IMG/VR virus record: IMGVR_UViG_3300030330_003356 | Location: 20,988 to 84,987 of that record | Origin: a virus | Lineage: Duplodnaviria; Caudoviricetes | Reading direction: 5' to 3' (one strand) | Length of the DNA stretch: 64,000 nt | The notes under the pieces: model-generated | The model's database searches: none | The model's input: only the letters and a program-made list of their open reading frames with translations | What the model was told of the DNA's origin: nothing | Shown: piece after piece, positions 42,413 through 44,634 of the stretch | Layout: each line of letters starts with the position of its first letter | How positions within the stretch are numbered: position 1 is the stretch's first letter | Program-made: the position numbers and the translations under genes

Positions 42413-43420
42413 GTGACTGTTAAAAGAAGTGATGGGACTACTGTACCCTTCCTACCGATTAAAGAAAGTGGAGACATCAATGCATATTGGATGCCATATG
42501 ATGAATACGCTAATCTTCCTGAAGTATTTTGTCAACGTAATACTGAAGGTCGTTTAAGTAAAGCAATAAAACATCTTGCTAAACTTCTCCCTGAACATTG
42601 TGTTGTTTTTGTTGCAAAACTGACTGAAAAGGATGAACTTTTTGGAAAGAAATATCCTGCTGGATATCTTTGGAGAATCGATTCTAATACTAGGGCGCTG
42701 AACTGGGAACGAGGTGGATCTGATTGTATTCCTAAAGATTTGCTAGTAATTGAGTATTCTTTTCCTTCATGCGAAAGAATTCGTGAATCTTATAACACTT
42801 TTGATTCTCCTGATAGTGTAGAAAGAAATCAGGAAAAACTTTATGGAATTCTGCAAGGAATGTATCGATACACTCCGCAGAATGATAAAATGATCAAAGG
42901 ACAAATTCTTTGTGCTCTGAACAAAGCATGTCATTTTTATTTTCCTGATACCTGGAATCAGCAAAATATTAGAACATCTGAGCTTCCTGGCCAGGTTGGT
43001 GCTTTCTTGGAGGAAATTAAAAAATTTGATGAAATCTGCACTAAGACTTCTCACTGGGATCAAGCACTTGTTTGTGCTGCTCTTATGGCACTTAAGAAAT
43101 ATGGAACTGATAATGATACTCTAAACGAGGCTCTTGGTTTCATTAATGATCGTGCTGCTGGATCTCGTAGAGGAAAAGATTGGGACGGAGTTACACATAT
43201 CATTCATGAATGGGAAACGGGAAAAAGATTCCCAGACAAACAAACTAATTGGCACAGATCCAATGGTTTAGATTACACAGTTCCTTTTGCACTCTATTGG
43301 ATTGATAAGTATGTGAAAGGTGAAACTGGAATTACATGTGGAAATAATTATAAGACGACTGCCGTAAAATATAAAGATCAAACAGTGTCTTCACTTAATC
43401 GTTTGCTTGGAATATCGTAA
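42413..43420 (+). CDS. ParB/Srx-like domain protein, 335 aa, GTG start
   Basis: FCQRNTE and WRIDSNTR resemble the QR...DGxHR/DGNTR motifs of ParB/DndB-like domains; GAGGT SD upstream. Confidence 0.5.
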   Translation: MTVKRSDGTTVPFLPIKESGDINAYWMPYDEYANLPEVFCQRNTEGRLSKAIKHLAKLLPEHCVVFVAKLTEKDELFGKKYPAGYLWRIDSNTRALNWERGGSDCIPKDLLVIEYSFPSCERIRESYNTFDSPDSVERNQEKLYGILQGMYRYTPQNDKMIKGQILCALNKACHFYFPDTWNQQNIRTSELPGQVGAFLEEIKKFDEICTKTSHWDQALVCAALMALKKYGTDNDTLNEALGFINDRAAGSRRGKDWDGVTHIIHEWETGKRFPDKQTNWHRSNGLDYTVPFALYWIDKYVKGETGITCGNNYKTTAVKYKDQTVSSLNRLLGIS

Positions 43421-43434
43421 AACCGAATAAAAAT

Positions 43435-43460
43435 GAGCGGGTTTCAACACCCCCTTTTTT
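43435..43460 (+). terminator. Imperfect intrinsic terminator after the ParB-like gene
   Basis: GAGCGGGT-TTCAAC-ACCCCCTT with one C-C mismatch, followed by a T tract. Confidence 0.5.
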
Positions 43461-43471
43461 GTGCTTAGTTG

Positions 43472-43536
43472 TATAATTAGTATGTACGCCGGAAGGGTAC
43501 ACACAACACACTCTCGCTTAAATAAGGAGAAGTCAA
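43472..43536 (+). promoter_or_regulatory. hsp20 -10 box and structured 5' UTR (ROSE-like RNA thermometer candidate)
   Basis: TATAAT at 43472-43477; hairpin GTAC(G)CC-GGAA-GGGTAC; hairpin TCTC(G)CTT-AAAT-AAGGAGA masking the SD. Confidence 0.65.
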
Positions 43537-43968
43537 ATGACAAACTTAATGAAGTTTAATGCTGCCGATTTGGATCAGTTGATGGATAAAATCACCCGTA
43601 ATTCTATCGGGATTGATGACTATCTGAACAACGTCTTCCATACCCAAACACAAAGCAACTATCCCCCATATAATGTTGTACAATTAAACAATACAGAGAC
43701 TAAACTTGAGATTGCTCTGGCTGGATTTACAAAAGATGAAATCAAAGTTTATACAGAGTATGGTAAACTCACAGTCAAAGGGGAGAAAGAAGCAACCACC
43801 GAGGAGGGACAATACCTTCATAAAGGACTTGCTCATAGGAACTTTGAAAGATCATGGACACTTGCTGAGGGAACGGAAGTTACTGATGTGACTTTTGAAA
43901 ATGGACTTCTCAGTGTGCTTGTGAAGAAGATTGTTCCTGAACACCATGCTCGTAAGGATTATCTCTAA
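43537..43968 (+). CDS. hsp20: Small heat-shock protein Hsp20 (IbpA-like)
   Basis: NYPPYNVV, EIALAGF, YLHKGLAHRNFERSWTL, FENGLLSV. Confidence 0.95.
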   Translation: MTNLMKFNAADLDQLMDKITRNSIGIDDYLNNVFHTQTQSNYPPYNVVQLNNTETKLEIALAGFTKDEIKVYTEYGKLTVKGEKEATTEEGQYLHKGLAHRNFERSWTLAEGTEVTDVTFENGLLSVLVKKIVPEHHARKDYL

Positions 43969-44048
43969 ATAAAACTGAATATCGTCGTCGCAGACGGAGG
44001 GGCAACTGGCCAAATCCAGTTGACGCCCCTCTTTTTTATTGCTAAACT
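43966..44048 (+). promoter_or_regulatory. Late promoter, short structured RNA and terminator overlapping a sigma70 promoter
   Basis: TAAATA at 43966-43971; hairpin GAGGGGCAACTGG / CCAGTT(GAC)GCCCCTC plus T6; TTGACG (44020-44025)-N17-TAAACT (44043-44048). Confidence 0.65.
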
Positions 44049-44069
44049 ACTAGGAGGTACACACTAAAG

Positions 44070-44432
44070 ATGACTGTAAAACTTTTGCTGCTGAAGTCCG
44101 GTGAGGACGTGATCGCTGATGTAAGTGAGATGGCAGTGGGTGAAGATGCCGACAAGAAAGTCCTTGGATATTTTCTTGATAAACCCTGTGTTGTCAAGAT
44201 TCTGAATGCTGAGCAGCAGGAAGAAGGAGATAAGAAGGCAGCGTTTAATGTTTCAATGTATCCCTGGTGCCCCCTTGCTGAAGATAGTGTTATCCCTCTT
44301 CCTGTAGACTGGGTGGTAACAATCGTTGAACCTAAACAAAAACTCAAAGAAATGTATTTGGAGGATGTAGTCGGAAATGGACAAACTAGTGAAGGTGATT
44401 CTGCTGACGAGCAATCAGAGACTGATCAGTGA
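44070..44432 (+). CDS. Conserved hypothetical protein (Sm-like beta pattern)
   Basis: KLLLLKSGEDVIADV...MYPWCPL...VPVDW-type pattern (LPVDWVVTIVEP); GGAGG SD; usual position after hsp20. Confidence 0.7.
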   Translation: MTVKLLLLKSGEDVIADVSEMAVGEDADKKVLGYFLDKPCVVKILNAEQQEEGDKKAAFNVSMYPWCPLAEDSVIPLPVDWVVTIVEPKQKLKEMYLEDVVGNGQTSEGDSADEQSETDQ

Positions 44433-44634
44433 AATCGAAGAGGTAGGTGCTGAGATTGGTGAACCTGATTGCAAGTTGATCAATCCCATGGAAATTTGTG
44501 AGGGTAATATGCTTGCTCCATGGATGATGGATCACACGATGCAAGACACTTTTATGATTAGTTCGGACAAGATCATCACACTTGCTGATCCTATGCCAAC
44601 ATTGCTTGAAAAATACTTAGAACAGACTAAATGA
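44377..44634 (+). CDS. Conserved hypothetical protein upstream of gp43
   Basis: LISEIEEVGAEIGEPDCKLINP...FMISSDKIITL. Confidence 0.7.
   Translation: MDKLVKVILLTSNQRLISEIEEVGAEIGEPDCKLINPMEICEGNMLAPWMMDHTMQDTFMISSDKIITLADPMPTLLEKYLEQTK

Follow-up and report, generated by a model that had tools for sequence, protein, structure and literature searches.

A conserved ROSE-like leader of predicted regulatory function precedes the hsp20 gene of T4-like cyanophages

The DNA analysed here, termed the window, is a 64-kb stretch of the genome of a T4-like ocean cyanomyovirus, which is represented in IMG/VR by an 85-kb fragment. Its nearest named relative is Synechococcus phage Bellamy, with 89.6% nucleotide identity over the hsp20 region. 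We found that hsp20, a core gene of T4-like cyanophages (PMC3037559), is preceded by a short leader which is a conserved and covarying RNA consisting of two hairpins, and not a product of chance. Judged by its sequence, it is a real and conserved ROSE-like leader, for which a regulatory function is predicted. The explanation we favour as a whole, and which we consider probable, is that of a ROSE-type leader whose SD sequence would be hidden by the second hairpin, which would be opened by warming and/or by the release of Hsp20.

In the window, hsp20 is flanked upstream by an ORF of 335 amino acids and downstream by two DUF6561 genes, which are followed by the DNA polymerase gene. The features of the region are as follows.

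42413-43420: 335-aa ORF between regA and hsp20, without a Pfam match
43435..43460, plus strand: weak terminator-like hairpin with T-run, at the end of the 335-aa ORF
43472-43477, plus strand: -10 box TATAAT, without a convincing -35 element; the spacing from box to leader is conserved
43484-43500, plus strand: hairpin 1 of the minimum-energy fold, extendable by a U-A pair to 43483-43501
43501-43511, plus strand: unpaired linker of A and C only
43512-43530, plus strand: hairpin 2, seven pairs, G43516 bulged
43512-43519, plus strand: anti-SD strand of hairpin 2
43520-43523, plus strand: loop of hairpin 2
43524-43530, plus strand: SD-containing strand of hairpin 2 (SD, 43524-43529)
43537..43968, plus strand: hsp20, with its ATG at 43537; 143-aa IbpA-like class A small heat-shock protein (Pfam HSP20, E = 2e-14)
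43997..44037, plus strand: strong intrinsic terminator (-26.4 kcal/mol, z = -3.52)

The 335-aa ORF looks like an inserted cassette, because in Bellamy regA directly adjoins hsp20 upstream. The terminator-like hairpin at its end has a fold z of -0.96; this value is weak because the stem, which is perfect in the relatives, differs from theirs by one base. Thus, part of the hsp20 message in the window may be due to read-through across this weak terminator. The strong terminator downstream of the gene is predicted to close a monocistronic hsp20 unit. The stretch from 43965 to 44059 takes in the hsp20 terminator as well as the beginning of the following intergenic region. It can be aligned far more widely than the hsp20 coding sequence, with identities of 82-91% across some 250 cyanophage records. 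It is overlapped by a promoter-like site, TTGACG-17-TAAACT. The two DUF6561 genes are overlapping paralogues of 120 and 85 aa, located at 44070-44634 between hsp20 and the DNA polymerase gene.

RNAfold returns the two-hairpin structure both as the minimum-energy and as the centroid fold of the leader (-13.5 kcal/mol, z = -3.05), and only 1 of 200 shuffled sequences matched its energy. Folded alone, hairpin 2 has a z of -3.12. The TATAAT box, both hairpins, the linker, the SD and the bulged G all lie exactly where the original prediction had placed them, and the fold it had drawn, with the SD paired opposite a bulged G, is the minimum-energy structure. Hairpin 1 forms a 5'-terminal stem with G43488 bulged, a G+C top and a GGAA tetraloop. 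Its likely roles are those of a transcript stabiliser and of a scaffold for folding, and it is possibly also a protein-binding site. The linker is rich in A and C and single-stranded throughout the aligned leaders and may serve as a ribosome standby site. SD accessibility was ranked for the 23 mechanically called ORFs of the window that have an SD-like tetramer. At 25 C the SD of hsp20 is predicted to be 1% unpaired, compared to a median of 39% for the 23 ORFs. In this model it is strongly sequestered, although it ranks fourth of the 23 and is therefore not unique by accessibility alone. A third hairpin of 3 bp over the AUG (43532-43541) was considered and rejected: its sequence recurs in the closest relatives and is absent from most other leaders.

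To assess conservation we gathered 80 IMG/VR loci encoding relatives of Hsp20 and added those of P-SSM2 and Bellamy. All of them follow a common plan, in which the terminator of the upstream gene is followed by a -10-like box and, 5-6 nt past it, by a hairpin. Then come an A/C-rich linker, the anti-SD heptamer and the SD, both invariant and separated by a loop that varies, and, after 4-10 nt, the ATG. The leader of P-SSM2 aligns by blastn at 76% identity, whereas its coding sequence no longer aligns. Among 57 distinct cyanophage leaders, 93.3% of the cells of the alignment are paired, compared to 84.6% in shuffles, none of which reached the observed value (0/500), and the covariation score is 0.208 as opposed to 0.071 in the shuffles. 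Sliding the 3' partners by 1-3 columns lowers pairing to 39-54%. RNAalifold independently recovers both hairpins from this alignment, and three pairs of hairpin 1 covary among G-C, U-A, A-U and U-G. The original prediction had proposed covariation across cyanophage hsp20 leaders as a check, and in these 57 leaders compensatory changes are clear in hairpin 1. The strands of hairpin 2 are invariant, save for one U-A to C-G exchange found in two sequences.

Since invariant pairs are uninformative on structure, hairpin 2 was examined in more distant clades. These comprise wider phage Hsp20 clades, whose proteins are 30-45% identical and were retrieved by protein search and not by motif, as well as alphaproteobacterial genes. 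In the wider phage clades and in some alphaproteobacterial hsp20 leaders the anti-SD reads either UCGCU or UUGCU, and this U(U/C)GCU variability is a defining feature of ROSE elements (PMC3669281). The resulting alignment has 44 distinct rows. It was fitted to the model, so that its 95.8% of paired cells are biased toward structure; even so, the slide control drops pairing to 50-61%. Eight pairs show changes on both sides. At the signature U/C position 31 rows have C-G and 13 have U-G; the basal pair of hairpin 2 occurs as U-A (10), C-G (9), U-G (4) and A-U (1), and its loop-closing pair as U-A (40) and C-G (3). In hairpin 1 six of the seven pairs show two-sided changes. Both hairpins share a bulged-G module, in which a G is bulged between two C's (C-G-C) that face G-G, and one phage clade has a hairpin 1 whose sequence can itself be read as a second ROSE-like module. 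Five leaders (L004, L015, L017, L087 and L104) have an extra G+C-rich hairpin with a T-run between the box and hairpin 1, which results in a three-hairpin leader. Another variant, L205, was found on a phage-like 189-kb contig of a Prochlorococcus single-cell assembly, in which hairpin 1 is kept, the anti-SD is degenerate and the loop is missing. It may be a natural variant that has lost sequestration of the SD.

The leader is tightly associated with hsp20 genes. A composite motif, defined as the anti-SD, 3-6 nt, the SD, 4-10 nt and ATG, has one match in the window with 0 expected, and the covariance model of the leader has a single match in the 85-kb virus record (69.6 bits). When 80 IMG/VR loci were sampled by the hairpin-2 motif alone, an Hsp20 ORF lay directly downstream in 58 of them, and some of these Hsp20s are only 30-45% identical to that of the window. 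Five more of the 80 loci end at contig ends and have an upstream 5' hairpin that resembles hairpin 1. In cellular genomes, hsp20 was found at 4 of 80 sampled motif matches. All four are proteobacterial: two are enterobacterial ibpB-type leaders, one is from a Rhodospirillaceae MAG and one from an alphaproteobacterial MAG.

A scan for sigma-70 promoters detected no -35/-10 pair at the 43472-43477 site, and the spacing of the box suggests that transcription would start at the base of hairpin 1 (about 43482-43485). Of 133 distinct leaders, 47 have TATAAT and 63 have the late-type TAAATA as the box located 5-6 nt 5' of hairpin 1. A few leaders carry both box types or an extra hairpin between box and leader; in L025 TATAAT and TAAATA are found in tandem. 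Given early-type boxes in some phages and T4-late-type boxes in others, the timing of hsp20 expression may differ between them. The RNA module is kept whatever the promoter class, which argues for an action after transcription. As to published transcription starts, the text of the P-HM2 paper does not mention hsp20.

How the leader relates to known ROSE thermometers was analysed by Rfam searches with queries of 801 and 68 nt (E <= 10), which include the ROSE models RF00435, RF01832 and RF02523. The last of these, ROSE_3, is presumably based on the Pseudomonas ibpA elements of Krajewski et al. 2013. None of the ROSE models matched the phage leader in either query, and RF01832 (ROSE_2) found nothing in the entire 85-kb virus record. 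The matches that were returned are chance ones, namely a miRNA, an EBV RNA, DUF2815, freshwater-2 and a CRISPR repeat. The leader of E. coli ibpA, in contrast, scores 100 bits to ROSE_2. The SD hairpin of E. coli ibpA and phage hairpin 2 have a common layout of 3 bp, a bulged G, 3 bp and a tetraloop; their anti-SD cores are identical, and a G-C pair of the E. coli stem corresponds to U-A in the phage. Their predicted dG is equal (-4.6 kcal/mol at 37 C and about -6.3 at 25 C), and both leaders precede a class A small heat-shock gene. The two leaders differ in that the one of E. coli ibpA is longer, with further hairpins, and in that E. coli ibpA is heat-shock induced at the level of transcription, by sigma-32 for bacterial sHsps (PMC10474464). 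In the reverse direction, the model of the phage leader gives weak matches to the ibpA hairpin and to the ibpB leader of E. coli. The latter, located in the ibpA-ibpB spacer (L211, 2899-2977), is matched with 14.6 bits. Within it, a hairpin similar to phage hairpin 1, with a G+C top and a bulged G, precedes an anti-SD/SD pair identical to that of the phage. The anti-SD heptamer is also identical to the phage one in two enterobacterial ibpB leaders (L231 and L241).

A counterpart in size and layout is provided by the ROSE-like elements of Pseudomonas ibpA (PMC3669281), which share with the phage leader a length of about 60 nt, a free AUG, a stable G+C-rich hairpin I, a single-stranded linker and a short hairpin II. 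In the Pseudomonas hairpin II, as in phage hairpin 2, the partner of the SD is the U(U/C)GCU motif, and the Pseudomonas hairpin confers thermoregulation on its own (PMC3669281). For hairpin I, Krajewski et al. suggested a role in stabilising the mRNA, the ibpA mRNA being unusually stable (PMC3669281). Unlike the Pseudomonas elements, the phage leader belongs to a phage of cyanobacteria, follows an early-/late-type box instead of a sigma-32 promoter, carries a bulged-G module of its own in hairpin 1 and has no Rfam match. The thermometer of hsp17 in the cyanobacterium Synechocystis likewise acts on the translation of a small heat-shock gene. It consists of one short hairpin (PMC3669281) without the ROSE signature, whereas the phage leader has two hairpins and the signature, so that the single hairpin and class B-like sHsp which define the hsp17 type are not what we see here. 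As to the ROSE class itself, the leader has its structural hallmarks: it is the 5' untranslated region of an Hsp20/IbpA-family gene and ends at the ATG, it has two hairpins, within the two to four of the class, with the SD in the 3'-proximal one, and it contains UCGCU at 43514-43518, with G43516 bulged, as the U(U/C)GCU anti-SD. The class has alpha- or gammaproteobacterial hosts and a sigma-32 promoter, and here the gene is that of a cyanophage.

The ROSE-like reading put forward in the original prediction is thus upheld as far as the covarying two-hairpin RNA, the signature and the near-identity to the ibpA hairpin are concerned. The Infernal search with ROSE models that it had proposed as a check gave no match with those of Rfam. 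We file the leader as one that would work like a ROSE-like element, by analogy of its structure, which conforms to the definition of the class, and with a failed Rfam-model test. Phage lambda cIII is a translational RNA thermometer that switches between two alternative folds. Full-text searches of the literature yielded neither a paper that connects the hsp20 of cyanophages with RNA thermometers nor one on a ROSE-like element in a phage.

The mechanism we propose is the following. The hsp20 mRNA would start at the foot of hairpin 1 and carry a short ROSE-type leader, in which hairpin 1, as a stable 5'-terminal stem, would protect the transcript and help the remaining leader to fold. In hairpin 2, pairing of the SD with the ROSE-signature anti-SD strand would keep 30S subunits off the mRNA. 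Being marginally stable, this hairpin could open, and translation would then rise. It might be opened by warming, as in the ibpA thermometers, by the release of bound Hsp20, as in the self-repression of IbpA, or by both. Translational repression and its signal are what we infer from the features of the leader; the chaperone output is probably set at translation, with heat, the chaperone itself or both as the signal. Energy calculations do not discriminate between a thermometer and an ordinary hairpin here. Nearest-neighbour predictions with ViennaRNA give an SD exposure below 10% up to 45 C for the phage hairpin and for the validated E. coli hairpin alike; predicted accessibility barely shifts between 5 and 45 C, and ViennaRNA separates neither hairpin from a non-thermometer. 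The ocean hardly warms or cools while a single infection runs its course, and this makes a heat-shock switch less plausible.

The alternative that survives best, and overlaps with our favoured explanation, is that the chaperone is the main signal. Free Hsp20 would bind the leader and repress its own translation until unfolded or aggregating proteins, arising during virion assembly, draw it away, in the manner of the E. coli IbpA aggregation sensor. In E. coli, translation of ibpA is held down by IbpA itself, which attaches to the thermometer-type 5' UTR of its mRNA until it is sequestered by aggregating clients (PMC10474464; Miwa et al. 2021, cited therein). R93 is essential for this binding; it is common in the IbpAs of alpha- and gammaproteobacteria and missing from IbpB and from the sHsps of Gram-positives (PMC10474464). 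The phage Hsp20 scores best to IbpA among the NCBIfam models (96 bits, with 92 bits for IbpB), and in the alignment its R101 and Y42 correspond to R93 and Y34 of IbpA. Of 117 distinct phage Hsp20s, 116 have Arg at the position of R93 and 114 have Tyr at that of Y34; E. coli IbpB, being unable to self-repress, has Q and F instead (PMC10474464). The phage system resembles the one of IbpA in its conserved essential Arg, its aromatic residue and its structured, thermometer-type leader. The presence of the same bulged-G module in both hairpins would also fit a binding protein, and an ocean of constant temperature leaves more to do for a feedback sensor than for a heat switch. Yet conservation of R93 may reflect the structure of the chaperone instead of RNA binding, the Pseudomonas hairpin II thermoregulates with no protein present (PMC3669281), and self-repression has been demonstrated for gammaproteobacterial IbpAs only. 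The evidence from R101, Y42 and the twin modules is permissive and no proof, and we regard the chaperone as main signal as a serious possibility that is somewhat improbable.

It is quite improbable, on the other hand, that the leader is a mere stability or processing element, in which the 5' hairpin would counteract 5'-end-dependent nucleases and the pairing of the SD would have no regulatory effect. Hairpin 1 is indeed located where a 5'-terminal stem would be, and such a role has been suggested for hairpin I by Krajewski et al. (PMC3669281). However, this explanation does not account for an anti-SD strand and a bulged G that are invariant across Hsp20s of 30-60% identity, in combination with 33 different loop sequences, and it leaves the pair-preserving changes in hairpin 2 unexplained.

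Least credible of all, to the point of being nearly dismissed, is that the conserved sequence acts as DNA, be it as a Pho box bound by PhoB or as a late promoter within the loop, since the part that matches either site is the loop, which varies, and the invariant parts are two mutually pairing strands whose changes preserve pairing. Rihtman et al. 2024 list a stretch of linker, anti-SD and loop upstream of S-PM2d130 (hsp20) as a putative Pho box in Table 2 of PMC10976474, and they report this gene as up-regulated under phosphate limitation; the hsp20 fragment is not known to be among those tested by gel shift. As to the late promoter, the loop of the window does contain TAAATA, on the basis of which the original prediction had raised the possibility of a late-promoter bypass. 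We reject this candidate, as only 9 of 121 distinct leaders have TAAATA inside hairpin 2, all of them from the clade of the window itself, and 33 loop sequences are found. Paired strands that are fixed around a loop that is free to vary fit an RNA better than a DNA site, although PhoB may still have an effect in S-PM2.

Where the gene and its leader come from was traced in cellular genomes. Cyanophage sHSPs form one clade that is nearer to bacterial class A than to cyanobacterial sHSPs (PMC3827213). Searching 151 host-family genomes with the leader model revealed no host gene with a phage-type leader; the sole matches were the phage contig L205 and five weak chance sites without an hsp20 ORF downstream. 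Likewise, a protein-pattern scan of cellular genomes for close relatives matched only this phage contig. Hsp20 relatives at E <= 1e-10 are encoded in 294 of 401 sampled alphaproteobacterial genomes, a tally that takes in two unpublished genomes (G195 and G395) on which no other claim rests. The best of these matches are 36-45% identical to the protein of the window. Several of the top ones are from genomes of 1.1-1.6 Mb, at loci with 29-38% G+C, and have the two-hairpin leader. The phage model matches alphaproteobacterial leaders directly upstream of hsp20 with 21-35 bits. In the small, low-G+C genomes these leaders resemble the one of the phage in their two-hairpin plan and in the G+C top of hairpin 1, and their anti-SD has the UUGCU form. 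These similarities are consistent with gene and leader having travelled together from, or to, small marine alphaproteobacteria.

A more far-reaching version of the ROSE-type reading, which is speculative and which we consider rather unlikely as a whole, combines these points. In it, the twin bulged-G modules would be bound by the IbpA-like Hsp20 and constitute a viral proteostasis sensor, with temperature doing no more than shifting its set-point. The gene would have been exchanged, together with its leader, between phages and small marine alphaproteobacteria before both spread through T4-like cyanophages under early- or late-type promoters. If this version is true, synthesis of the chaperone would be released when unfolded structural proteins draw off Hsp20 during assembly.

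T4-like cyanophages are among the most abundant marine viruses. If our explanation holds, the range of ROSE-type leaders, which covers alpha- and gammaproteobacteria, would come to include cyanobacterial viruses, and the leaders would represent a natural set of short thermosensor variants from organisms of cool waters. In these viruses, translation would be the step at which the amount of chaperone is matched to the temperature of the water or to the folding load, independently of the promoter class, which would bear on how the yield of infections responds to ocean warming.
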